Virus record (IMG/VR): IMGVR_UViG_3300048888_000044
Coordinates: 1-55,751 of that record
Length of the DNA: 55,751 bases
DNA from: a virus
Taxonomy: Duplodnaviria > Caudoviricetes
Strand: one strand, 5' to 3'
Below, piece after piece: positions 25,085-48,728 of the stretch (its first letter is position 1; each line of letters opens with the position of its first letter). Below the pieces are notes generated by a model, which worked only from the letters and a program-made list of their open reading frames with translations, had not been told where the DNA came from and made no database searches. The position numbers and the translations under genes were made by a program.

Positions 25085-25175
25085 TTCTAACGCCAAAGCT
25101 GAGCCGGGACGCTCGAATGAGGACGAATGACTAAACCAACGTGCCAGCGGCCTTGGCTCCAGCGTCTGGTTAGGT
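25085..25175 (-). other. attC-like site 1
   Basis: Minus strand ACCTAAC-CAGAC-GCTGGAGC...GCTCAGC-TTTGGC-GTTAGAA. Confidence 0.9.
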
Positions 25176-25448
25176 GCATTCAGTTGGGGCACTCTCCAAA
25201 TAAAGAGTCTTGTGCTTCAGGATTTCCAAGTCCGACAGGGCAAGAAACTGCGTGGCAGCGTTCAAAGATAATGGCAAAGGAAACAGCCAAACATTGTCGA
25301 AGAGCAATTTGGTGTGCGAATCTTTCTTTTTTAGCGTTTCGTATTCACTTAAAAGATACTGCCAAGACTTCCATTTATCGGTTGGTGGTTCGTGCCCGTG
25401 AGATGGTGACGGCTTTTCGACGCAAATCAGTAAGTGTGGGGTGTTCAT
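25170..25448 (-). CDS. Cassette 1 gene (canonical orientation), hypothetical
   Basis: ATG shortly after GTTAGGT; stop TAA inside ACCTAAC of attC1. Confidence 0.7.
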   Translation of the reverse strand: MNTPHLLICVEKPSPSHGHEPPTDKWKSWQYLLSEYETLKKKDSHTKLLFDNVWLFPLPLSLNAATQFLALSDLEILKHKTLYLESAPTECT

Positions 25449-25464
25449 ATTGTGAAGGGAATGC

Positions 25465-25601
25465 ACCTAACGACCGAAGCTCACCCGCGACGCTGAAGGA
25501 AAAGGAGATTCATGAAAAAGAATAAAACCGATATGAAAAAGAATAAAACCGATGGTCTAACCTCAACGCCAGCGGCGTCGCGGTGCAGCGCATGGTTAGA
25601 C
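25465..25601 (-). other. attC-like site 2
   Basis: GTCTAAC-CATGC-GCTGCACC...GGTGAGC...GTTAGGT; loop holds a 21-nt tandem duplication. Confidence 0.88.
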
Positions 25602-25904
25602 ATCATGCCGAAGCTGTTTACTCTCCAACATCTTTCTCGTCTTCTCTTCCTCGTCAGACAGCCAATTTGGTGGAGTTTGAAGGGCAGCCAGTTTATTCTT
25701 CAATGCCGTATTATCTTTCATAAGTCGCTCTATCGTTTTTATCTGTGTCGCAAGTGTGTCGTCTTGTTTGTCAGCGCGCGCCTGGTACGCTTCCGCCTCT
25801 TCCAAGCCGAGCGAAAGCTGATTGCGCAATATGGCCGTGACTGGCGGCTTCGTGTGTTCAACAATGAGTGCGTCGAGTCTTTGAAGATGTTCGATAAGAT
25901 TCAT
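25596..25904 (-). CDS. Cassette 2 gene (canonical orientation), coiled-coil protein
   Basis: ATG about 15 nt after GTT; stop TAA inside GTCTAAC of attC2. Confidence 0.75.
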   Translation of the reverse strand: MNLIEHLQRLDALIVEHTKPPVTAILRNQLSLGLEEAEAYQARADKQDDTLATQIKTIERLMKDNTALKNKLAALQTPPNWLSDEEEKTRKMLESKQLRHDV

Positions 25905-25912
25905 ACGATGAT

Positions 25913-26002
25913 GTCTAACCCCGGAACTCAGCGACCCGGCGACCAGACGAAGGACTCACCCTCAACGCCCAAGCCGGGTTCGTTGGAGTGACCTGGTTAG
26001 AA
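25913..26002 (-). other. attC-like site 3 (probable founding site of array 1)
   Basis: Plus strand GTCTAAC...ACTCAGCGACCCGGC / GCCGGGTTCGTTGGAGT...GTTAGAA. Confidence 0.85.
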
Positions 26003-27559: not shown

Positions 27560-27817
27560 GTGTCGATGTCACGTTCAAAAGGCCATCGCACGGGTGAGAT
27601 AGAGGGAATTCGGGTTCGTCCGAGTCTGCAACTGCTGAACATCATCAGCGCGTATCCCACGACCAACGCCGCAGCCAAATTTCTTGGTCTCGCCTATTCG
27701 ACGCTCGACAGTTTCATCAATCACGAGGGAGGAATCAGCCTCGACAACGCCGCGCAGATCATCACGCGGACGGGGTTGAGTTACGAACAACTGTTCAAGC
27801 ACAAGAAGGAGAAGTGA
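27560..27817 (+). CDS. Cro/CI-type HTH regulator
   Basis: NAAAKFLGLAYSTLDSFIN...ISLD...YEQLF. Confidence 0.75.
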   Translation: MSMSRSKGHRTGEIEGIRVRPSLQLLNIISAYPTTNAAAKFLGLAYSTLDSFINHEGGISLDNAAQIITRTGLSYEQLFKHKKEK

Positions 27818-28374
27818 GCGACAAACAGAAATACGGACGAGAGGTTGCTCTAAAGGTGGCTGAAGACCTTCAATCCCGACTCAAGCTGGCGTGCCGTAGA
27901 ATGGCTGTGGCTGGATCACTGCGTCGAGGAAAAGAAACCGTTGGAGATGTTGAGCTGCTTTTTGTGCCAGTGCTGGCGGAACGGGCCGATGGACTGTTTG
28001 ACCGCCGCTTGGTGTCCGTGGCGGACGAAGTGTGCAACGAACTGTTGCGCGACGGAATTCTAGCGAAACGCCCAAACGTCAAAGGTCACTTTACGTGGGG
28101 CGAGGCAAACAAGCTGGCGGTGCATGTTGCAAGCGGAGTGCCGGTGGACTTCTTTTCCACGACCGAAGACAACTGGTGGGTGAGTCTGGTGATTCGCACT
28201 GGCAGCAAGGAAACCAACCTGAAGCTGACCAACGGAGCCATTCACCTTGGCAGGAAATTACACGCTTACGGATCGGGAGTTACGATGCCGGACGGAAGCA
28301 CTCGAAAAGCCCAAAGCGAACAGGAAGTTTTTGAACTGTGCGGAGTCCCTTACCTTGAACCGAAAGACCGATAA
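27814..28374 (+). CDS. Minimal family X DNA polymerase
   Basis: AGSLRRGKETVGDVELL, VDFF, RTGS, SEQEVFE..G.PY.EP..R. Confidence 0.9.
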   Translation: MSDKQKYGREVALKVAEDLQSRLKLACRRMAVAGSLRRGKETVGDVELLFVPVLAERADGLFDRRLVSVADEVCNELLRDGILAKRPNVKGHFTWGEANKLAVHVASGVPVDFFSTTEDNWWVSLVIRTGSKETNLKLTNGAIHLGRKLHAYGSGVTMPDGSTRKAQSEQEVFELCGVPYLEPKDR

Positions 28375-28376
28375 AC

Positions 28377-29489
28377 ATGACCACCCAACTATCCAAACCG
28401 AACACCATCGAGTCGATGCTGGCGTCGCCTCAGATACGTCAACGCTTCAACGAGATGCTCGGGCAACGCGCGCCGCAGTTCATTTCGTCGATTATCACCG
28501 TTTACCGTGGATTTTCTTCCCCGGTAGATCCGGCGAGCGTCATTGCCAGCGCCGCCATCGCCGCCACCCTGGACCTTCCGATCGAGAAGAACCTTGGTTT
28601 CGCGCACATCGTTCCTTACGCGGGCGTGGCTCAATTTCAAATGGGAGCGAAAGGACTGACCCAGTTGGCTCTTCGCAGCAATCAGTATTCGGGGATGAAC
28701 GCCGTGGCCATCAATGCGGAGTGCTTCGGTGGGTACGACAACATTGGAGATCCGATCATTCGTTGGGACTTGCTTGACGAGACCAAGGAAGCGATTGGGT
28801 ACGTGTTCGCGTGGCGTCTGACTAGCGGATTTTCAAAGACGGTTTACTGGCCCAAAGCGAAGGTGGTTGCTCACGCTGAACGATTCAGCCAGGCGTACAA
28901 GAAAAAGAAGGCTGACAGTCCGTGGATGAACAACTTTGACGCAATGGCCCTGAAAACTGTGATAGCAAACTCACTGCGACGGTGGGGTATTTTGAGCGTT
29001 CAGATGCAAACCGCGTTCAAATACGACCAGGCGATCATCAAGAACATCGACGCCGAACCGCAGTACGAGGACGATATCCCGTTCGGTCCGGCGACGACCT
29101 CCAAACTGATTTCAGGCGGGAAGAAAACCCGCAAGCAGGAGCCTCAGGAACCGACTGAGCCTGAGCAACCAATTTCCGGCGAGGGTTCTGACGAGTCCAC
29201 CGCCGGCACTCCCGCGCCCATCGCCCCTGGTTCTCCAGATCAGCTCAATGGGCCGGGAGTTGTTCCTTTGGAGCACGGTGACAGTGAGGACGCCAACGAG
29301 GTCATTCGCATCATCATGGCCAACGCGCGTGAGCTGGGAATCGAGGAAAAGTTGCTGATGATGTGGTCCAAGGCGGCGAAACTGGCTTCTGAAAAACAGA
29401 GTCAACTGAGCGACCTGGCGACGCACAAGCTCAAGAAAATCTGCGAACAATGGCCGGCCGTGGTGAAGGAGATTACCGGGAAGTCATAA
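28377..29489 (+). CDS. recT: RecT-family ssDNA annealing protein
   Basis: AATLDLPI..NLGFAHIVPY..AQFQMG.KG..QLALRS, FDAMALKTV; stop is the TAA of attC4. Confidence 0.92.
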   Translation: MTTQLSKPNTIESMLASPQIRQRFNEMLGQRAPQFISSIITVYRGFSSPVDPASVIASAAIAATLDLPIEKNLGFAHIVPYAGVAQFQMGAKGLTQLALRSNQYSGMNAVAINAECFGGYDNIGDPIIRWDLLDETKEAIGYVFAWRLTSGFSKTVYWPKAKVVAHAERFSQAYKKKKADSPWMNNFDAMALKTVIANSLRRWGILSVQMQTAFKYDQAIIKNIDAEPQYEDDIPFGPATTSKLISGGKKTRKQEPQEPTEPEQPISGEGSDESTAGTPAPIAPGSPDQLNGPGVVPLEHGDSEDANEVIRIIMANARELGIEEKLLMMWSKAAKLASEKQSQLSDLATHKLKKICEQWPAVVKEITGKS

Positions 29490-29571
29490 CGACAAGCTGA
29501 GGCACGGCGGAGAAAACCAATGACCATGAAAAGCGAACAATCCCGCCGTTGCCTCCAGCGACTGGTTCGAG
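29484..29571 (-). other. attC-like site 4
   Basis: CTCGAAC-CAGTC-GCTGGAGG-CAACGGCGG / CCGCCGTG-CCTCAGC-TTGTC-GTTATGA. Confidence 0.9.
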
Positions 29572-29953
29572 GACATTCGTGTATCCCGTCGAAGCCAATC
29601 ACTCCACCGTCCTCGGCTACGGAGCAACCTCAAAAGCTGGAAAACCAATGTGGGCGGCGCTGGTGTGGGCTGGCGCACGCAAGGACGGCGGCGCACACAT
29701 GATGAATCCGACCGGAGGCGAATACCTGCACGTCCGCGTGAAGCCTCTGACGGACGGCTGCTGGTATCGCGTCCGCTGCTCCCACTCCCGCGGAAACAGA
29801 TGGCGTGGCGGCGTCGTGGAAAATGTCGAAGTAAAACAAAAACGGGGCAAGTGGCACTGGCACGTCACTGTGTCCTCGAACGTAGAGGTGAGCGGTCAGA
29901 GTGGGCGCGATAAGGCGTCCGCCTGCAAGCCGGACTCAATGCGCCCACTCTGA
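29549..29953 (+). CDS. Cassette A gene, hypothetical
   Basis: Frame open from attC4 into attC5; start uncertain. Confidence 0.5.
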   Translation: MPPATGSRTFVYPVEANHSTVLGYGATSKAGKPMWAALVWAGARKDGGAHMMNPTGGEYLHVRVKPLTDGCWYRVRCSHSRGNRWRGGVVENVEVKQKRGKWHWHVTVSSNVEVSGQSGRDKASACKPDSMRPL

Positions 29954-29976
29954 TTCGCTCGACCGATTTGTTAGAC
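29875..29976 (-). other. attC-like site 5
   Basis: Arms TCAGAGTGGGCGC / GCGCCCACTCTGA with extrahelical bases. Confidence 0.92.
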
Positions 29977-29984
29977 GACGATTT

Positions 29985-30236
29985 ATGAAACAAGACAACC
30001 AATGGCATGACGGAATCGTGTATCAGCACTCTGATGATGGCAAATTCGTGCTCGCTGAAAACTTAGAGGAAGCTGACAAAGACAATCGCCCGATGACGAT
30101 GGAAGGGGGAGGCGTGAAATACCAAGACGTGAAATACAACTGGAATCGCGGACAGCCAATCGTGGACTTCGGCGATTTCAAAATGGTCATCACAGACATC
30201 GGGTTCGTAAAACTGGACGAAACGCAAGTCGTCTAA
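29985..30236 (+). CDS. Cassette B gene, hypothetical
   Basis: ATG just after GTTAGAC; stop in GTCTAAC. Confidence 0.7.
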   Translation: MKQDNQWHDGIVYQHSDDGKFVLAENLEEADKDNRPMTMEGGGVKYQDVKYNWNRGQPIVDFGDFKMVITDIGFVKLDETQVV

Positions 30237-30338
30237 CGAAAAGCTGACGCACAGCCGCGATTAACTATGAGCACGAAATTAACCTGTGACGCTGGACTGC
30301 AACAGACCCCGGCTGTTGCGTCCGGCGTCTTGTTAGCA
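30231..30338 (-). other. attC-like site 6
   Basis: GCTGACGCACAGCCG / CGGCTGTTGCGTCCGGC arms flanked by AAC and GTT. Confidence 0.9.
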
Positions 30339-30617
30339 CCCAAAACCCTCGAAGAACTCATAAACCAAGCCGCCGAAGTGCTGCCTGACTGGTGGGAGAT
30401 ACGAATCGAAGTGCAGCAAGGATACGGGCAAGCAATCGTGACGCGGCCAGACGGCACGGAAGTGCAAATGTCCGATGGCGAGAACGACATCCGAGAACAG
30501 TTTCGTGATGCGCTGGGTCTGGTGCGTGATGAACTGGAAGCAGACAAACTCTTGGGTGCTAACGACAAGCTCAGAGATGGCGCGACAGAGAGGCGTCCAT
30601 ATTCACAGGAAACGTAA
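30267..30617 (+). CDS. Cassette C gene, hypothetical
   Basis: Starts in attC6 loop, ends in attC7 loop. Confidence 0.7.
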   Translation: MSTKLTCDAGLQQTPAVASGVLLAPKTLEELINQAAEVLPDWWEIRIEVQQGYGQAIVTRPDGTEVQMSDGENDIREQFRDALGLVRDELEADKLLGANDKLRDGATERRPYSQET

Positions 30618-30648
30618 TCGCGCCATTCTCTGAAGCGCATGGTTAGAG
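30557..30648 (-). other. attC-like site 7
   Basis: GCTCAGAGATGGCGCGA / TCGCGCCATTCTCTGAAGC arms. Confidence 0.92.
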
Positions 30649-30661
30649 CACGTCAAATACA

Positions 30662-30976
30662 ATGAAAACACTGACACCAGGACACAAATACGAACTCGAA
30701 AACTTCGAGGCCAAAGACCAACCCGGTCAGGTCATCCAGTTCATCGAGAAAACTCCAGTCGCCGGCGAACCCGGCAAACTGGTCACACTCAACGACGGCA
30801 CGACCAACGAGGAAGTGCTCAAGATGCTGATAGACCGCTGCCAGTCTCTCTACGACAAATTCCCGTCGGAGGAAACGGCGTGCTCCATCAGCCATCTCAA
30901 ATCGGCGCTATACGCGCAACAGTCCCGGACATACGAACGCTCTCAACGCGGCGTCGAAGGGAAGCACCTCAAGTGA
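30662..30976 (+). CDS. Cassette D gene: Tad1/Acb2-like anti-defence sponge
   Basis: H.Y...IQF...GTTNEEVL..LIDR...F.SEETAC.I.HL..AL....RT.ER..RGVEG matches the Tad1 pattern. Confidence 0.7.
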   Translation: MKTLTPGHKYELENFEAKDQPGQVIQFIEKTPVAGEPGKLVTLNDGTTNEEVLKMLIDRCQSLYDKFPSEETACSISHLKSALYAQQSRTYERSQRGVEGKHLK

Positions 30977-31001
30977 CAACCGAGCACGGGGAGACTAAGT
31001 G

Positions 31002-31127
31002 CTCTAACGCAGAAGTGAGCGGACAGCCGCCGAGTGCGACTCGCAATGACACCAAAAATCTATGAGCAAAAATAACGAATCGAAACGGAAAAGCGGGGCG
31101 GCTGTTCGCTCCACTGACGGGTTAGGC
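31002..31127 (-). other. attC-like site 8
   Basis: AGTGAGCGGACAGCCGCC / GGCGGCTGTTCGCTCCACT arms. Confidence 0.9.
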
Positions 31128-31325
31128 ATCGGCACAATCCACGACCCAAAAGCTATGTTCCTCCGCAACTACGTCGGGGAAGCAACGTGCGGAAAACTCA
31201 AATACGAAATTAGCACTGGAATGAACGGCTCGCCAATCGTCCACAGCAAGAAATCCGGCAAGTGGTTCTCGCTATCATGGCAAGACATTCTGGCGCTCGC
31301 GGAGAAGGCAGGCGTAGATGCCTAA
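31062..31325 (+). CDS. Cassette E gene, hypothetical
   Basis: Starts in attC8 loop; stop in GCCTAAC. Confidence 0.7.
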   Translation: MSKNNESKRKSGAAVRSTDGLGIGTIHDPKAMFLRNYVGEATCGKLKYEISTGMNGSPIVHSKKSGKWFSLSWQDILALAEKAGVDA

Positions 31326-31444
31326 CGCAGAAGTCAGCGACAGCCGCCGAGAGAAACCATGAACGACACTCTGACATTGGAACAGCCAGCAACGCCTCGA
31401 AACGGAGAGCGGGGCGGCTGTTCGTCTGCACTGATTGGTTCGGC
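31320..31444 (-). other. attC-like site 9
   Basis: AGTCAGCGACAGCCGCC / GGCGGCTGTTCGTCTGCACT; similar to attC8. Confidence 0.9.
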
Positions 31445-32048
31445 ATTTCGGTGTGTCGTAGCTGACCCTCCGTGGCTGCCAACGATGGCACTGGTGAATA
31501 GTCCTGCCAGCGGTATCGGTGCACCGAAGGCAAGTCCGCAACGCCACTACCCGACGATGAGCGTCGAGGAAATCTGCGCCCTGAATCCGCCGTCTGCCAC
31601 TCAATCTCACCTCTGGCTCTGGTGTCTGAATCAGCACACGGATTGGGGTCACACCGTCGCAAAGGCGTGGGGCTTTGAAGTGTTCCAGATGGTGACGTGG
31701 TGCAAACCCGGCCTCGGAACTGGCCGATTCCAATGCAACAGCGAGCAAGTGCTACTCTGCCGGAAAGGAACTCGCCACGGCAATCCGTTCGGGATGACCG
31801 GCGGCACATACTTCAACTGGCCGCGTGGCCGACACTCTGAAAAGCCGGATTCATTCTACGACCTCGTGGAGCGAGTATCACCTGGCCCGCGTCTGGAAAT
31901 GTTCGCTCGCACCCGCAGACTCGGCTGGTCTGCATGGGGCAACGAAATCTCCAGCGACGTAGAAATGCCGAACGCAGAGTCCAGCTATCGGAGTGGGCCG
32001 GTAGCGGCGTCGAATAAACCGGCGGCTCAATCGGCCCACTCCGATTAG
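31359..32048 (+). CDS. Cassette F gene: MT-A70-family adenine methyltransferase
   Basis: ADPPW, HLWLW, HSEKP, RLEMFAR, GWSAWGNE. Confidence 0.9.
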   Translation: MNDTLTLEQPATPRNGERGGCSSALIGSAFRCVVADPPWLPTMALVNSPASGIGAPKASPQRHYPTMSVEEICALNPPSATQSHLWLWCLNQHTDWGHTVAKAWGFEVFQMVTWCKPGLGTGRFQCNSEQVLLCRKGTRHGNPFGMTGGTYFNWPRGRHSEKPDSFYDLVERVSPGPRLEMFARTRRLGWSAWGNEISSDVEMPNAESSYRSGPVAASNKPAAQSAHSD

Positions 32049-32067
32049 CTGCGACGATTGGTTAGCT
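31967..32067 (-). other. attC-like site 10
   Basis: GTCCAGCTATCGGAGTGGGCCG / CGGCCCACTCCGATTAGCTGCGAC with two extrahelical bases. Confidence 0.93.
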
Positions 32068-32074
32068 GCTTTTT

Positions 32075-32503
32075 ATGGGAATGTTTGACGACATCAAGTG
32101 CAAGTATCCGCTGACGGTGGAAGGTGCGAACGCGCTCGCCTACCAGACGAAGGACACCGACGCGCAGCAACTCGACAACTACGAGATTCGAGAGGACGGA
32201 ACGCTGTGGCACGAGAACTACGATCCTCGATTTGAGGAGCACAAAGAAGCGCCTCTCGGCTTCTACATCCACCGCGACAACCTGAGATGGGAGCAAGTGC
32301 CCATAACTGGCGAAGTCCGATTCTACACGATGTATGGCGTCAAAGACGGGCAACTGGTGAACGCCAACGCCCGTGACGGCTGGCTGGAATGGTCGGCCTA
32401 CTTCGCGGACGGAAAACTCAATCAAATTCACCTGCTCGAAAACCGAGCGCCAGATGCAGCTAACGATGAGTTCAGGCGCACAGACCCGCCGTTGAAACCA
32501 TGA
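32075..32503 (+). CDS. Cassette G gene, phage-type hypothetical
   Basis: MGMFD...QTKD...Y.I.EDG.L...TG.VRFY...F.DG.L; stop in attC11 loop. Confidence 0.8.
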   Translation: MGMFDDIKCKYPLTVEGANALAYQTKDTDAQQLDNYEIREDGTLWHENYDPRFEEHKEAPLGFYIHRDNLRWEQVPITGEVRFYTMYGVKDGQLVNANARDGWLEWSAYFADGKLNQIHLLENRAPDAANDEFRRTDPPLKP

Positions 32504-32592
32504 CGCCACTCGAACAATCCAAGCCTGCCGACGAAGCCCGCGACTCTGTGCTGCGAAGCGGGGCTGTGTCGTCCTGCAACGATTTGTTAGGG
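32458..32592 (-). other. attC-like site 11
   Basis: GTTCAGGCGCACAGACCCGC / GCGGGGCTGTGTCGTCCTGCAAC. Confidence 0.88.
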
Positions 32593-33360
32593 CGCGTTTT
32601 GGTGGCGTGCGAATATAGCGGAACTGTCCGCGATGCGTTCAAACTCAAGGGATGGGATGCTTGGTCGTGTGACTTGCTTCCAACCGATGTTCCTGGACAA
32701 CACCATCAAGGAGACGTGGCAGAACTTCTGAAACAGCAATGGGACATAATCATCGCCTTCCCACCATGCACCTATCTCTGCTCGTCTGGAATGCACTGGA
32801 CTGTGCGAGGCAAGCGCGATCCTCAACTGACGGAAGACGCGCTCAGTTTCGTGCGCTCATTCCTCGATGCTCCCTGTGAACACATCGCGCTCGAAAATCC
32901 AGTCGGCTGCATCTCGACGCGCATCCGAAAACCGGACTGCGTGATTCACCCTTGGCAATTCGGACACCCCGAATCCAAGACAACCTGCCTATGGCTCAAA
33001 AATCTTCCGGCGCTCGTGCCGACAAATATCCTGACAAAGCCAGCAAGCGGCCACTGGGAAAACCAATGCTCAACCGGCTCGCAAAACCGACTAGGGCCAA
33101 GCCCAACCCGGTGGAAGGAACGAAGCAAAACATATCAAGGCATCGCCTCCGCGATGGCCGCACAGTGGAGCGCGTTCGTATTAAATTCGCGCACGACTGC
33201 CAAGAGTGTCCCGATTGCGGAGAACCTTTTTGCTTGGAGTGCCAGGAACACTACGCCGACTGCCGATGTGTCGGGCCAAGCAACGCCGAAGATGATGGAT
33301 GGACGCTCATTGAACGGCGTGGAGTGCTCTACGGCGAACGCAACGCGCCCTAACAAATGA
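32500..33360 (+). CDS. Cassette H gene: C5-cytosine methyltransferase-like
   Basis: VLVACEYSG, SCDL, FPPCTYL, ENPVG, HPWQFGH; ATG supplied by attC11 loop. Confidence 0.8.
   Translation: MTPLEQSKPADEARDSVLRSGAVSSCNDLLGRVLVACEYSGTVRDAFKLKGWDAWSCDLLPTDVPGQHHQGDVAELLKQQWDIIIAFPPCTYLCSSGMHWTVRGKRDPQLTEDALSFVRSFLDAPCEHIALENPVGCISTRIRKPDCVIHPWQFGHPESKTTCLWLKNLPALVPTNILTKPASGHWENQCSTGSQNRLGPSPTRWKERSKTYQGIASAMAAQWSAFVLNSRTTAKSVPIAENLFAWSARNTTPTADVSGQATPKMMDGRSLNGVECSTANATRPNK
33165..33353 (+). CDS. Cassette H second ORF, Cys-rich Zn finger
   Basis: CQECPDCGEPFCLECQEHYADCRC; stop in CCCTAAC. Confidence 0.55.
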   Translation: MERVRIKFAHDCQECPDCGEPFCLECQEHYADCRCVGPSNAEDDGWTLIERRGVLYGERNAP

Positions 33361-33366
33361 TTAGAC
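33348..33366 (-). other. attI-like simple site closing array 2
   Basis: Minus strand GTCTAAT-CATTT-GTTAGGG (L, 5-bp spacer, R); no attC arms. Confidence 0.6.
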
Positions 33367-33369
33367 AAC

Positions 33370-33678
33370 ATGGCGCGCCGAGCAAATAGCCGAAATGTCT
33401 GGTGGCAAAATCACTACGCCAAACTGCGCGCCGCCAAGGAACGCAAGCGTCTTGCCGATCCTGATTTCAGCCAGGAAACGAATCCCCTAGTGCCAATTCC
33501 GCGCCCCAAAGCGCGCTTCCGTATCTTGATTGAGGATCAGCAGGTGGGTGACCGGCTCCAGATCAAACTTTATCCCACTCCCTTCCGCGGCCAGTTTGCG
33601 ACGGGCGATGGGATCCGCAGCGTGCGCCAGCTCGAACGCGCCTTTGGCCATATTTTGAGAACAGCTTTTACCGTATGA
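33370..33678 (+). CDS. Hypothetical basic protein
   Basis: 102 aa, coupled to next gene. Confidence 0.6.
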   Translation: MARRANSRNVWWQNHYAKLRAAKERKRLADPDFSQETNPLVPIPRPKARFRILIEDQQVGDRLQIKLYPTPFRGQFATGDGIRSVRQLERAFGHILRTAFTV

Positions 33679-34769
33679 AAAGAACCCCATTCAGCGCCTC
33701 AAACTTTTCACGCCGTCGTCTCTGCAACGGCAGTCTCCCGATGGAGGACGGGTTGCCCGAGGTCGAGAACGAGTGGTCGGCGGAAGGGACGCTGCTGCAC
33801 CACGCCGCGGCGACACAAGTTCACACGGGTCTCAACCAATATCAGTCAGAAGTGGTTCAGCAAGCACTCGGTCATCGAAATCGGTTCATCGACACTCTCG
33901 CTCCACCAGACCCGGACGACTGGAAATTCTTCTTCGAGATCGAACTGCCGTACACTCTCAAGAACAAGACCGTGTTCCTGAACCACGCGGACTACGTGGC
34001 AGTGTTCCCAAAGGCCGTCGCCATCGTGGACTACAAATTCGGCTACGAGGAAGTCGATGCGCCGGAACTGAACGAGCAACTGGCGGTTTACATTGCCTGC
34101 TTGGCCGAGAAATTTGACGTACCGGAATACTACGGCCTGATAATCCCCAGGTTTGGCAATCCGGCGCCACCGGTGAAGTACACGCGCGCGGAGATTCCTG
34201 CCCTGCGAAAGATGATCGAGGACGTGTACGACGCCTGCACACCGAAGGCACCACGCACGCCTGGGGTGAGGCAGTGTACCTATTGCAAAGGTTTTCAGCT
34301 TGGTTTGTGCAAAGAGGCAATCAGCATGGCGATGAATCCAGTCCACAAGTTCAGCGGAAAGTTGCTTCAGAATCCCGGCCAAGTATTGCAATCACTCCCT
34401 GCGACTGACCGCACCAAACTCTTCGACGCCTTCGCGATGGCCGACAAGTTGCGCAAGACGTTCGTGGCCGCAGTCAAACCGATGATTGAGCGAGATCCTG
34501 AGTTCGTTCCTGGATACCGACTCAGCAAGGAGGGTGAGACAAGAAGCAAGGTTACGGATTTGTTCAGCTTAGAGGAAAGGCTGTGGAAAAAATTGAATTT
34601 GTCCCACGAAGGATTTGTGGCTCACTGCTCTATTTCCAACACGGAATTGAAAGATTTGGTTCGCGAGATTTCGGGCCTAAAAGGCAAAGAGCTGGACGCA
34701 AAGGTTGCTGAGTTGACTAAGGGACTGGTGGATACGACGCCGGTGGAAAGGAGTTTGGAGAGGGTATGA
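33675..34769 (+). CDS. Cas4-like PD-(D/E)XK exonuclease (DUF2800-like)
   Basis: C..S, AEGTLLH, AD, IVDYKFG, N.QL..Y, C..C....C. Confidence 0.8.
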   Translation: MKRTPFSASNFSRRRLCNGSLPMEDGLPEVENEWSAEGTLLHHAAATQVHTGLNQYQSEVVQQALGHRNRFIDTLAPPDPDDWKFFFEIELPYTLKNKTVFLNHADYVAVFPKAVAIVDYKFGYEEVDAPELNEQLAVYIACLAEKFDVPEYYGLIIPRFGNPAPPVKYTRAEIPALRKMIEDVYDACTPKAPRTPGVRQCTYCKGFQLGLCKEAISMAMNPVHKFSGKLLQNPGQVLQSLPATDRTKLFDAFAMADKLRKTFVAAVKPMIERDPEFVPGYRLSKEGETRSKVTDLFSLEERLWKKLNLSHEGFVAHCSISNTELKDLVREISGLKGKELDAKVAELTKGLVDTTPVERSLERV

Positions 34770-34996
34770 AAGTCAAAGAACTGATCGTGGCTTTATCATC
34801 TTTGCCACCGGACGCGAACGTGACTCATTTATGGGATGGAGAAGCCCGCACTGCAATCAATCATGTTTGGCTTGCTCGCAATGGTGAGGTTGTTACGGCC
34901 GACGACAACATGGTTTGCTATTCTGAAGGGAGCCGTCCCTGCACTGCTCCGACACAAGCCCAAGATAGATTTTGGAGAACTCCAAACTCAGAGTGA
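34766..34996 (+). CDS. Small hypothetical protein
   Basis: MKVKELI..L..LP.DA.V motif. Confidence 0.65.
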   Translation: MKVKELIVALSSLPPDANVTHLWDGEARTAINHVWLARNGEVVTADDNMVCYSEGSRPCTAPTQAQDRFWRTPNSE

Positions 34997-36429
34997 AAAC
35001 AGCCATGTGTTGTTTGGGCCGGTTCGGGGACATCATCAACACGCTGCCGATGGCGTATGAGGACAGCCGGGTTCGTGGCGCAGTGGACTGGATCGTGTCG
35101 GAAGAGTTCGCCAGTGTTCTCGAAGGTTGCTCCTACGTGCGGCCGGTGATCTACACAGGGCAGTACTGGGACTTGCAAGGAGCGGTGAAACAATTCAGTC
35201 CTCGTTACGCAGAACTACGTATTGTCCAGCCGTGGTCGAGCAATTATCCGGGCGTCCAGTTGACCGAGAGCTTCTGCAAGAGCGCCTGGTGCCAAGTTGG
35301 GCGTAGAGATTGGCCGGGAAGGCTCGTGTTTGATCGGCGGGATCGTGCTCGGGAGGAAAGGTTATGGTCAACGATGTTGAATTCGGTCTCAATGAATCCT
35401 GACCACAAACCTGTCCTGCTGTGCGTTGACAGCACCTCCAGTCCTTTCAAGCACCGGTTGGAACTAATCACCTCTTTGCGTAAACGGTTTGGGGCTGAAA
35501 ACGTTTGGATTCTGGACCCCAAGGCCACGCGCATCTACGACCTGCTCGGGCTCTACGAACGCGCTGCGTGCCTCGTGACGGTGGATACGGCGCACCTGCA
35601 CCTTTCCTGGGCTGTGCCTCGGCTGCCGGTGGTGGCTCTGATAGCCGACACGCCGACCATGTGGCACGGAACAGCCACGAGGCCGAATCAATCGTTTCGA
35701 TGTCGCTACGCGGATTACCCGGCGCGCGCGGAAGAACTGACGCGAGCCGTCGATCAAGCCATTCAACCACGCCCGGAACAGAAGCTGTGGCATTGCTGGA
35801 GCGATTACCAGCGGTCCGGAGACTCGTCGCACCGTCACGATCAAGTCTGTGTGTCCTGGCTGACCGAGTACAACAAGGGTCATTGGGAGCGTGGAGCGTA
35901 TTTCAACGGCAAAGGCCGGCAATTGGGCAACCGAGAGCTTCACGCGGTCAAAGACATCCTCAACCATGCCGCAGACAAGGCGCAGGACAGCGACCTGCTC
36001 GTTCTGACGAACGACGACACCGGTTTTGCGGTCGGAATCACGGAAACGCTCTTGGACGTCGCTGCGTGGCCTCTGCCAGCGGCGTACGCGCATCGGTTGG
36101 ACTGGGACAATAGCTGTCCAACCATTCTCGACGGCGAGACGTATCCTGGGGTTGACCTGTTCGCGATCGGCGTCAAGTTGTGGAAGCAATGGCGGCTGGA
36201 GTTCCCTGACTGCGTAATTGGCGCCGAGCAATGGGATCTGGCCATGCTGGCGTTCATGCGACGCGTTGGAGCTCCTAACCTGGCCGGCGCGATCTGGCAC
36301 CAATCTCACGCGCCAAGCTGGGTCGGTTTCAACTCGGTCGTGGCCAATAATCATAACCGATTGGCTTGCGGGAAATGGTTTGATTCTCAAGGCATTACGG
36401 CAGACCAGGTGATTAACAACGAGTTATGA
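34993..36429 (+). CDS. GT9 (heptosyltransferase-like) glycosyltransferase with second GT-like domain
   Basis: LGRFGDIINTLP, LVTVDTAHLHL; C-terminal LTNDD..G.DLF..WD..WH..H. Confidence 0.75.
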   Translation: MKTAMCCLGRFGDIINTLPMAYEDSRVRGAVDWIVSEEFASVLEGCSYVRPVIYTGQYWDLQGAVKQFSPRYAELRIVQPWSSNYPGVQLTESFCKSAWCQVGRRDWPGRLVFDRRDRAREERLWSTMLNSVSMNPDHKPVLLCVDSTSSPFKHRLELITSLRKRFGAENVWILDPKATRIYDLLGLYERAACLVTVDTAHLHLSWAVPRLPVVALIADTPTMWHGTATRPNQSFRCRYADYPARAEELTRAVDQAIQPRPEQKLWHCWSDYQRSGDSSHRHDQVCVSWLTEYNKGHWERGAYFNGKGRQLGNRELHAVKDILNHAADKAQDSDLLVLTNDDTGFAVGITETLLDVAAWPLPAAYAHRLDWDNSCPTILDGETYPGVDLFAIGVKLWKQWRLEFPDCVIGAEQWDLAMLAFMRRVGAPNLAGAIWHQSHAPSWVGFNSVVANNHNRLACGKWFDSQGITADQVINNEL

Positions 36430-36762: not shown

Positions 36763-37290
36763 ATGACTTGGGAATCCATCGACGGCTGGTTCGACTTCGC
36801 CGACGTTTACGACATGATTGCGTCCAAACTCGTGCCCGGCGACATCGTGGTCGAGGTCGGCAGTTATTTGGGTCGGTCAACGGCGTACCTATCGAGCAAG
36901 GTGCCAGCAGACGTGACGATCATCGCCGTGGATCCGTGGCCGCATTTCTCGCCCATTGCTGAACGTGTCGAGGTGAGAGAGGATTTGTACGGTTGCTTCC
37001 TGTCCAACATGTTACAGTGCGGCTGCAAGAACGTCTTACCCCTACGCAAGACTAGCATCGAGGCATCAAAGTGCCTCAGAAACGATTTGGCAGCGGTTTT
37101 CCTGGACGGCGACCACAGTTACGAGGCTGTGAAGGCGGAAATCCCTGCCTGGCTGTCCAAGATCAGGCCCGGAGGCATTCTGGCCGGCCACGACTTCGGA
37201 GCGGAGCACGAGGGCGTCAAACAGGCTGTGATCGAGCTGCTTGGCTCTAAATTTTCGCTCATGGGCCAATGTTGGGTGGTGCAATTGTGA
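36763..37290 (+). CDS. SAM methyltransferase (Methyltransf_24-like)
   Basis: VEVGSYLGRST, FLDGDHSYE, GGILAGHDF. Confidence 0.88.
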   Translation: MTWESIDGWFDFADVYDMIASKLVPGDIVVEVGSYLGRSTAYLSSKVPADVTIIAVDPWPHFSPIAERVEVREDLYGCFLSNMLQCGCKNVLPLRKTSIEASKCLRNDLAAVFLDGDHSYEAVKAEIPAWLSKIRPGGILAGHDFGAEHEGVKQAVIELLGSKFSLMGQCWVVQL

Positions 37291-47313: not shown

Positions 47314-47664
47314 GTGAAACTTCCAAACTATGTCAGCGAAACCATCAAGCGGCTCAACCCGAATTTGTTTGTTCGTCGAGTGGATTCCGAAATCTCCGAA
47401 CCGGACCCGCGGCGAGCACTGGTCGAAGACGTTCAAGCACGGGAAAAAAGCTCACGATGCGTGGCGTATCGCGTGGTACTCGTCGCCCACCGCAAGAGAC
47501 TGGTTGATGATGACAATAACGTCGCCGGCTGCAAACCTCTCAGAGATGCCATCGCAGAAACCTTGAGGATCGACGACGGCGACGAACGAATTCAGTGGGA
47601 GTACGGTCAGGTGAAAACGAGTGGAACCGGGGGTGTGTTCGTCATCATTGAAAAGACGTTGTGA
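47314..47664 (+). CDS. RusA-like Holliday junction resolvase
   Basis: DDDN....KPLRDAI...IDD motif. Confidence 0.6.
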   Translation: MKLPNYVSETIKRLNPNLFVRRVDSEISEPDPRRALVEDVQAREKSSRCVAYRVVLVAHRKRLVDDDNNVAGCKPLRDAIAETLRIDDGDERIQWEYGQVKTSGTGGVFVIIEKTL

Positions 47665-48728
47665 AGGACCGACTGACCATCATTTGCGGAGATGCGCTGA
47701 CGGAGTTGAGAAAACTGCCGGAAGAAAGCGTGCAATGCTGCGTCACGTCACCTCCCTATTGGGGACTCCGCAATTACGGGCATCCTGACCAAATCGGACA
47801 AGAGGCAACGCCAGAAGAATACGTCGAAAATCTCCGCCGCGTATTCGCGGAAGTGCGCCGCGTGCTCCGCAAGGATGGAACTTGCTGGCTGAATCTCGGT
47901 GACAGCTTCTTCGGGTCTTGGGGCAACTACTCCGGCCAGAATCGCGGCAACGGCAAGCAGCGCGAAATAGCCAACGGCTCGCAAGTGCCGAATCACGCCT
48001 ACGACGGCGAGGAAACGATGCGCCCGCCAACTTCCGGGAAGCATCCAACGCTCAAGCCGAAAGACCTCTGCATGATTCCAGCGCGCGTCGCGCTCGCGCT
48101 GCAAGCCGATGGCTGGTGGCTGCGCTCGGACATCATCTGGGCGAAACAAAACTGTATGCCCGAAAGTGTGACGGACCGACCGACGCGCTCCCATGAATAT
48201 CTGTTCCTGCTCACGAAGTCTGAACGCTACCACTACGACCACGAGGCCATCAAAGAACCCTGCATCTACGACACGGGCGCTCCCGGCACAAGCACCGCTG
48301 ACCGCAAGGCCCGCGCCGCCGGAAACAAACTTCTGCCGACTGCCGAGCGAAACGGAATCCGGGCGGCGAATCCGGACAAGCAGCGCGGCCACTCACGCCG
48401 GCACGATGGCTTCAATGACCGCTGGGATAAGATGGAGAAGGCGGAACAATGCTCCGGGATGAGAAACAAGCGCGATGTCTGGACTGTCGCTCCAGCAAAC
48501 TATCCCGAATCGCACTTCGCGACCTTCCCGCCGGACCTGATAAAACCCTGCATCCTCGCCGGCTCGAAGCCTGGAGACGTGGTGCTTGATCCTTTCGCGG
48601 GCAGCGGCACTACCGGAATGGTCGCACTGGAACTGGGACGCAAAGCTCTGTTGATAGAACTCAATCCGGATTACGTGAAGCTCATCGAGAAAAGAACTCA
48701 CGTCACTCCCGGTCTAGCGCTCTCCTGA
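47661..48728 (+). CDS. Beta-class N4C/N6A DNA methyltransferase
   Basis: TSPPY, HFATFP, VLDPFAGSGTT. Confidence 0.93.
   Translation: MKDRLTIICGDALTELRKLPEESVQCCVTSPPYWGLRNYGHPDQIGQEATPEEYVENLRRVFAEVRRVLRKDGTCWLNLGDSFFGSWGNYSGQNRGNGKQREIANGSQVPNHAYDGEETMRPPTSGKHPTLKPKDLCMIPARVALALQADGWWLRSDIIWAKQNCMPESVTDRPTRSHEYLFLLTKSERYHYDHEAIKEPCIYDTGAPGTSTADRKARAAGNKLLPTAERNGIRAANPDKQRGHSRRHDGFNDRWDKMEKAEQCSGMRNKRDVWTVAPANYPESHFATFPPDLIKPCILAGSKPGDVVLDPFAGSGTTGMVALELGRKALLIELNPDYVKLIEKRTHVTPGLALS

Follow-up and report, generated by a model that had tools for sequence, protein, structure and literature searches.

A Cassette Array in an Integrase-Less Phage Ends at a Probable Orphan attI Nearly Identical to the Integrase-Adjacent Site of Other Phages

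Results

The cassette array and its neighboring genes

The window, by which we mean the whole stretch of DNA that was analyzed, is an entire IMG/VR virus record of 55,751 bases with a CheckV completeness of 99%. Between recT and the gene for a PD-(D/E)XK exonuclease, it carries an array of eight cassettes, a probable attI half-site and a 102-aa ORF (Table 1). The TAA stop of recT lies directly to the left of the far-end crossover, 29489|29490, in the sequence AAGTCATAA, which occurs only once in the window (29481–29489). That eight cassettes fill this interval had been claimed from inspection of the sequence, and the claim was borne out: eight attC-type hairpins delimit as many cassettes from recT to position 33353. 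In 8/8 cassettes, the xxxxAAC box at the closing end and the GTT box of the cassette's own hairpin are exact reverse complements over 9–13 nt, compared to a maximum of 6 nt for pairs of boxes that do not belong together (n = 56) and a match of only 3–5 nt between the two boxes within one hairpin. Such complementarity between a cassette's own boxes is the hybrid-site footprint of integron cassettes, and it places the cut at AA|C of the plus strand, corresponding to G|TT of the minus strand.

Table 1. Features of the window, with positions, strands and the basis of each assignment.
Feature	Position	Strand	Basis or remark
Second small array	25085–26002		Three attC (K0–K2)
attC K0	25085–25175		
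attC K1	25465–25601		
attC K2	25913–26002		
recT	28377–29489	+	Pfam RecT, 3.1e-32; TAA stop 29487–29489
attC-type hairpins, overall	29484–32592	+ (bottom, recombinogenic strand)	DNA folds; 88–135 nt
Hairpin J0	29484–29571	+	
Hairpin J1	29875–29976	+	
Hairpin J2	30231–30338	+	
Hairpin J3	30557–30648	+	
Hairpin J4	31002–31127	+	
Hairpin J5	31320–31444	+	
Hairpin J5b	31967–32067	+	
Hairpin J6	32458–32592	+	
Array of eight cassettes	29490–33353	+ genes (attC bottom strand)	Boundaries by box complementarity
Cassette A	29490–29880	+	
Cassette B	29881–30236	+	
Cassette C	30237–30562	+	
Cassette D	30563–31007	+	
Cassette E	31008–31325	+	
Cassette F	31326–31972	+	
Cassette G	31973–32463	+	
Cassette H	32464–33353	+	
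Hybrid R box GTTAGGG	33348–33354	-	TTAGGG portion belongs to cassette H
Probable attI, integrase-proximal (L) half	33354–33369	-	Plus strand CAAATGATTAGACAAC; top strand is minus
102-aa ORF	33370–33678	+	Starts directly after the attI half
PD-(D/E)XK exonuclease (DUF2800)	33675–34769	+	Pfam DUF2800, 7.4e-11; phrog_69 exonuclease

The cassette genes are of phage type, and plus-strand ORFs of four cassettes matched PHROG families: those of cassettes D and G matched phrog_2428 and phrog_1615, and those of F and H matched the DNA methyltransferase families phrog_359 (also Pfam MT-A70) and phrog_757, respectively. Methyltransferase genes were also found outside the arrays, at 36763–37290 (Methyltransf_24) and 47661–48728 (N6_N4_Mtase, 3.1e-52), so that this phage carries at least four. 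The boundaries of cassette H were confirmed independently by another viral locus, L067, where a related methyltransferase cassette, whose core aligns to that of cassette H at ~70% identity, shares both its opening GTTAGGGCGCG and its closing ACGCGCCCTAA|C with cassette H, and there continues into another attC. The methyltransferase of cassette H has a Cys-rich C-terminal extension of ~65 aa with CxxC pairs (window 33140–33353); the related cassette in L067, compared at 1100–1175, lacks this extension, yet has the same final 12 nt.

The 102-aa ORF that starts at 33370 had no match in Pfam, PHROG or NCBIfam and no relatives in viral contigs, and only three 20-residue matches were found in metagenome contigs. 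A single 262-letter contig from run X8 covers 33410–33671 with 18 differing letters, and its upstream neighbor falls outside the contig. A ninth cassette containing this ORF was ruled out, as it has neither a closing box nor an attC.

The second, smaller array holds two cassettes with minus-strand genes (25170–25466 and 25596–25904) whose TAA stops lie inside the box, as in the canonical build. The AAC box of K0 is complementary to the GTT box of K2 over 9 nt, and the region has the appearance of a solo attC into which two cassettes were inserted. At the corresponding position, the close relative L001 (described below) has an unrelated spacer of ~150 nt.

attC hairpins and their recombinogenic strand

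Each hairpin is an imperfect palindrome with xxxxAAC at its start and GTTxxxx at its end, and the RYYYAAC and GTTRRRY boxes, paired stem and variable loop are those of attC sites, with some boxes departing from the strict consensus (e.g., GTTCGAG and GTTAGCA). Covariation among 43 family members was assessed on a 20-pair hairpin that we specified by hand and tested apart from the RNAalifold consensus of our covariance model, R1, which contains only 9 base pairs. The specified hairpin was paired in 90.4% of cells, compared to 25–45% when the partner was slid; compensatory change was seen in 13 of its 20 pairs, and 0/500 shuffles reached the observed values. We searched for attC with R1, which we built from this attC family. 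Applied to the window with filters off and E<=10, it recovered the 11 known sites (8 + 3), which are its training set and match by construction, and found nothing at 33300–33500. A weak match on the minus strand at 516–573 (18.3 bits, E 0.019) falls within a long ORF and appears to be a chance hit.

A 16-nt arm common to J4 and J5 was found at 63 loci in viral contigs, about two thirds of them chance matches in GC-rich DNA, and 18 rows (15 distinct sequences) of the 63 passed the context filter; locus L246 was discarded as an AT-rich chance match. The same arm followed by GTT 11–14 nt downstream occurred in >127 stretches of bacterial genomes, mainly MAGs of Verrucomicrobiota, and several of these were in arrays.

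Bulged bases lie on the plus-strand GTT arm in seven of the eight folds drawn; J2 was not resolved in the drawing, and by direct reading its GTT arm is 2 nt longer. In J5 and J6 the bulges are spaced T-3bp-T-3bp-C, and the first bulge is usually C. Nivina 2016 (PMC5027507) describes extrahelical bases on the attC bottom strand, opposite the AAC arm, the first of them usually being G. The window hairpins likewise have extrahelical bases opposite the AAC triplet, and by this rule the plus strand is the attC bottom strand. The same polarity was seen in three Verrucomicrobiota genomes (IntI at 340–389 bits on TIGR02249, cut-off 265), where the plus-type strand of the family is the intI coding strand, and in phage integron loci, where 18/18 attC matches are on the intI strand. 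This evidence agrees with the orientation given in the sequence-only reading, which took minus as the top strand with the cut at AA|C on plus, and it places the attI-proximal end of the array at 33353/33354. The opposite assignment, with plus as the top strand and the canonical order of gene then attC, was rejected by the position of the bulges and by the native intI strand, though it fits several ORF ends.

The end of cassette H

At the end of cassette H, the plus strand reads CCCTAACAAATGATTAGAC (33348–33366), followed by AAC and then by the ATG of the 102-aa ORF. Its reverse complement is the minus-strand GTCTAAT-CATTT-GTTAGGG from which an attI-like entry site had been proposed earlier, and the accompanying observation that cassette H ends without an attC also held, since the array ends in CCCTAA|C and the covariance model finds no attC in this interval. 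The crossover (minus G|TT, plus AA|C) falls between 33353 and 33354, at the junction with the first cassette and in a GTTRRRY-like box; the seventh base of this R box is G rather than Y. The box at 33348–33354 and the GTT box of hairpin J6 (32586–32598) are exactly complementary over 13 nt. After the last cassette the window continues as AA|C-AAA-TGATTA, so that a TGATTAG L-box lies within 33354–33369, three bases from the crossover. GTTAGGG has four matches in the window against 2.66 expected and is thus not rare, which makes the short-motif resemblance on which the earlier proposal was based weak by itself. The weight of the attI reading comes from comparison with real attI sites.

attI sites of integrase-bearing phages

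In phage contigs of Verrucomicrobiota, attI lies 13–20 nt upstream of the intI start. Four phage loci, L247 (the same as L012 and L244), L248, L249 (the same as L245) and L250, are complete integrons, with 2–8 attC, then attI, then intI 13–20 nt further on. All parts are on one strand, with intI following the cassette genes and reading in the same direction. L247 reads GTCTAA|CAAGTGATTAGACAAC, and 13 bases beyond is the ATG of a 315-aa ORF that matches TIGR02249 over model positions 2–314 with 266.6 bits, only just above the cut-off of 265. L249 has the same 16-mer in front of an IntI that is 89% identical, L248 has one change in the 16-mer and an IntI that is 94% identical, and L250, with an IntI of 57% identity, has CAATGATTAGGC at the equivalent place.

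Comparison of the window sequence CAAATGATTAGACAAC to these sites gave 15/16 identical positions with CAAGTGATTAGACAAC (L247 and L249) and 14/16 with CAAGTGATTAGGCAAC (L248), and the region is the sole match in the window with three or fewer mismatches to the phage attI 16-mer. The integrase-side half is thus conserved with attI of integrase-bearing integrons, in a comparison that rests on a handful of loci. Only 16 nt are conserved; the 13 further bases that precede intI in L247–L249 (...CATTGCTAT) are missing from the window, and part of the integrase-binding region may thereby be lost. The flank beyond the recT end of the array is unlike the equivalent flank of L247, L248 and L249, and the whole records that hold L244 and L245 (G305 and G306, both with direct terminal repeats) contain no relative of the window RecT or of the exonuclease/DUF2800 protein. 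With backbones that are unrelated, the similarity between the window and L247–L249 belongs to the integron platform, and the 15/16 identity points to a shared platform and not to a phage sequence that resembles attI by accident. The suggestion that a minimal attI or secondary site had nucleated the array in situ is, as stated, unsupported in the light of this identity.

Chromosomal integrons of Verrucomicrobiota

Among 37 intI loci, ten attI junctions were verified, the criterion being complementarity between the closing box and the GTT box of an upstream attC; six further loci yielded only candidates, and ~21 had no located junction. After AA|C, five of the ten verified junctions (L209, L215, L216, L217 and L237) continue as N3-TGATT(A/G), one (L203) as N2-TGATTA, and four (L233, L204, L202 and L201) with other L-sides. 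A comparison with Verrucomicrobia attI sites had been recommended in the sequence-only reading, and its outcome is favorable: the window's AA|C-N3-TGATTA motif is shared with 5/10 verified junctions. A second attI class, upstream of intI in L201, L205 and L206, reads AA|C AGTAGTA(A/T)TGGGACAAAG followed by repeated GACAAAG / GACAAAC words, which are possibly accessory integrase-binding repeats.

Of the 301 genomes sampled from the phylum, 87 have an IntI above the TIGR02249 cut-off, as do 4/4 genomes that have this attC family in arrays. Some sampled genomes have 3–4 IntI copies, and many of the IntIs are in open frames of 420–560 aa, suggesting long N-terminal extensions. The sampled bacterial IntIs are only 32–42% identical to the phage IntI, and within this sample no clean link was seen between IntI similarity and L-box type.

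Absence of an integrase gene

A TIGR02249 search of the whole record gave no match, and the same search detects Xer-type recombinases in 14/14 control genomes. A tblastn search of the window with the phage IntIs revealed no credible remnant of intI (best E 0.13), and the 33370 ORF stands where the other phages have intI. The combination of intI, attI and cassettes that defines a complete integron is present in L247–L250 and incomplete in the window, which conforms to the definition of a CALIN (at least two attC and no intI) with its 8 + 3 attC. With no integrase or remnant in the window, the site would be an orphan attI, presumably served in trans.

Relatives of the locus and the empty allele

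The sole close relative, L001 (the same contig as L010), has a RecT of 84% and an exonuclease of 73% identity. Its recT stop overlaps the exonuclease start, and it has none of the eight cassettes, the attI or the 33370 ORF. RecT relatives at L002–L009 are 31–43% identical, and attC of this family were found in 0/10 of the loci L001–L010. L001 also lacks a polymerase-beta-like nucleotidyltransferase gene, which in the window lies at 27814–28374 between an 85-aa ORF and recT, a single-gene indel with no attC.

The sequence-only reading had reconstructed an empty allele by joining recT to the 33370 ORF. Removal of 29490–33353 (3864 nt) indeed gives exactly that junction; the allele itself was not observed in the sequences searched. 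No relative with recT joined to the 33370 ORF was found, and the recT|exonuclease junction of L001 is a different one, the outcome that the reading itself had named as speaking against it. Contigs of run X6 with 0 differing letters cover the stretch except for small gaps, and one of them (33227–33818) spans the attI junction. A contig of run X2 covers recT up to 29532, with only short pieces of low likeness beyond, and run X7 gave short pieces only. Among the contigs of the runs searched, none joins recT to 33354 and none represents an empty or differently filled allele, contigs being a form of evidence that drops rare variants. The ancestral state could be recT-attI-33370, or recT-attI-intI with later loss of intI, or one that preceded import of the block.

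Two further contigs differ from the window within the array. One from run X6 is identical to it except for a 19-nt insertion in the J0 loop (window 29539). The other, from run X8 (freshwater), follows cassette F to its end, no more than 2 nt from the boundary, and continues with a different attC arm and then a cassette E-like start; this joint (31974->31048) may reflect cassette reordering in a relative, and is weak evidence because its shorter side has only 31 letters at 85% likeness.

Cassette build in phages and bacteria

In five of the eight J hairpins, an ATG in the loop opens the downstream ORF. A loop ATG opening a bottom-strand ORF of at least 60 codons was found in 22/29 viral attC, and in 7/11 of those in the window, compared to 4/31 bacterial attC, while the canonical build, in which a gene on the opposite strand ends in the box, was found in 13/31 bacterial and 3/29 phage attC. 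These counts compare viral loci L011–L067 and L247–L251 to bacterial loci L076–L153, all chosen by one arm motif, and some of the "bacterial" loci may be prophages.

Discussion

By position and by homology, the site at the end of cassette H is best classed as an attI. The flank past the cut is homologous to real attI sites beside the intI of other phages, and it shares the native L-box of chromosomal integrons, which supports the earlier proposal of an attI-like site. We consider it likely that 33354–33369, with the crossover at 33353|33354, is an integron's attI, the corresponding integrase gene being absent from this phage. To judge from sequence comparison, the array of this phage thus ends at an orphan attI, nearly identical to the integrase-adjacent site of other phages, and no integrase is encoded here.

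Three other explanations were weighed. The array and an attI stub could have come together, out of the integron of another phage, by ordinary recombination that did not involve IntI, with the integrase cut away at the 33370 ATG, in which case the site never worked in this phage and would be an attI through descent alone. That the homology with L247–L249 breaks off abruptly at 16 nt, precisely where a gene begins, is what module exchange at the boundaries of genes would produce; L001 lacks the whole block 29490–33674 and differs by other single-gene indels, such as the polymerase-beta-like gene, and cassette content showed no allele variation in the runs searched. Against this, the far end of the array falls exactly at AA|C, coinciding with the recT stop, and carries no far-end flank of L247, L248 or L249, which favors junctions made by IntI over an arbitrary breakpoint. 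In addition, the two cassettes in a solo attC at 25085–26002 indicate that IntI acted on the phage lineage at more than one place. We therefore regard import as an inert relic as unlikely.

Far less probable is a chance origin, in which the first cassette entered a GWT (attG-like) target in the spacer between recT and the 33370 ORF and the likeness to attI is coincidental. Loot et al. (preprint, 10.1101/2022.09.11.507474) describe insertion of cassettes by integron integrases at GWT sites across genomes, and, like attG as described there, the window has cassettes in a non-integron genome context at a target that contains GTT; positions 6–9 of the reconstructed target differ from the hotspot motif CRGM, so that nothing beyond GTT would be required. 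However, attG, by that description, needs GWT only and differs from attI, whereas the window site carries a conserved attI half next to its GTT. We rejected this explanation because the site is identical at 15 of 16 positions to an intI-adjacent site in unrelated phages, is the only such match in 55.7 kb and lies exactly at the array end, and because its TGATTA L-box has the same spacing as in five native attI.

That the site is merely the inert stump of a ninth hairpin without its body, a possibility that the sequence-only reading had itself raised and that the plus-strand CCCTAAC ... GATTAGAC, resembling two boxes without a stem, might recall, was rejected as very improbable, because R1 gave no match there even at E<=10 with filters off, the plus strand at 33354–35295 contains no GTTRRRY, the sequence past the cut matches attI sites and not attC arms, and the same-ended cassette in L067 is followed by a full attC unrelated to 33354–33369.

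If the site is indeed an orphan attI, any recombination at 33353|33354 would have to use IntI in trans. The integrase could be supplied by a chromosomal integron of the host or by a co-infecting integrase-bearing phage, and its presence in 87 of 301 genomes of the phylum implies that possible donors are common. Cassettes would enter one at a time at G|TT by attI x attC recombination, cassette H would be the most recent arrival, and the recT stop would be left intact at the far end. The order given in the sequence-only reading, with H newest and A oldest if insertion always took place at this site, would agree with the rules of integrons. Because the cassette genes are on the attC bottom strand, which is plus, they would be read by the rightward transcription of the phage, and early transcription in that direction would express them, including the two DNA methyltransferases.

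In class 1 integrons, attI1 lies beside intI and has L and R boxes around G|TT, its core consisting of L (CCCTAAA), a 5-bp spacer and R (GTTRRRY). The window site resembles this classical arrangement in its G|TT crossover, in having, on the integrase side and within a few bases of the cut, an L box like an inverse core, in the first cassette abutting the site, and in the attC bottom strand being the intI strand. It differs in having no intI beside it and only ~16 nt that are recognizable. The phage integrons also differ from classical ones in the placement of intI, which follows the array and reads in the same direction as the cassette genes instead of diverging from them. The sedentary integrons of Verrucomicrobiota (G001–G004 and others) have the same attC family and the same junction, in which a cassette ending xxxxAA|C is followed by an L-box, often N3-TGATTA. 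Most genes of the bacterial arrays lie on the top strand and have their stops in the box, whereas those of the window and the other phage loci mostly start in the loop.

Integrons, attI/attC sites and CALINs in phage genomes, including methyltransferase cassettes, have been published by Qi et al. 2023 (PMC9892861). Like the window, a phage described there has several attC and cassettes and no integrase, DNA methyltransferases are among the cassettes, and phages are likewise seen as drawing on pools of cassettes. As far as the main text of that paper describes, its cassettes are oriented as in bacterial arrays or have divergent attC sites. In comparison to that description, the window array ends at an identifiable attI homologous to those of integrase-bearing phages, its attC family is of the Verrucomicrobiota chromosomal integron type, and its cassette genes occupy the attC bottom strand, with their starts located in the loop of the hairpin. 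In the literature searched, we found no description of an attI common to integrase-bearing and integrase-less phages, no link between phage integrons and those of Verrucomicrobiota, no paper on integrons of Verrucomicrobia phages, and no earlier description of the reversed cassette build. Parts of integrons in phages being already published, the new element here is this reversed build, in which bottom-strand genes begin within the hairpin loop.

In work on integrons, phages have mostly been regarded as occasional bearers of stray attC clusters. The attI type described here would link integrase-bearing and integrase-less phages with unrelated backbones, and both of these to the chromosomal integrons of the host phylum, and it leads to the testable hypothesis that phages can exchange counter-defence genes at a specific docking site with the help of integron machinery acting in trans. 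More tentatively, as a possibility that we rate somewhat below even, Verrucomicrobiota phages may run their own reversed-build integrons, with orphan attI sites that would let integrase-less phages collect cassettes, notably anti-restriction methyltransferases, through IntI from the host or a co-infecting phage. In such integrons, the genes would be on the attC bottom strand with the start codon in the loop, and the array would be co-directional with a downstream intI and read by phage transcription. If this is true, attI and IntI would also drive phage mosaicism. If the reversed build is general, phages would maintain a pool of cassettes suited to their own transcription, with a bearing on the origin of integron cassettes and on the flow of cassette genes between phages and bacteria. 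The loops of phage attC often have an A/C-rich leader before the ATG (GAAACCATG, AACAACCCATG).
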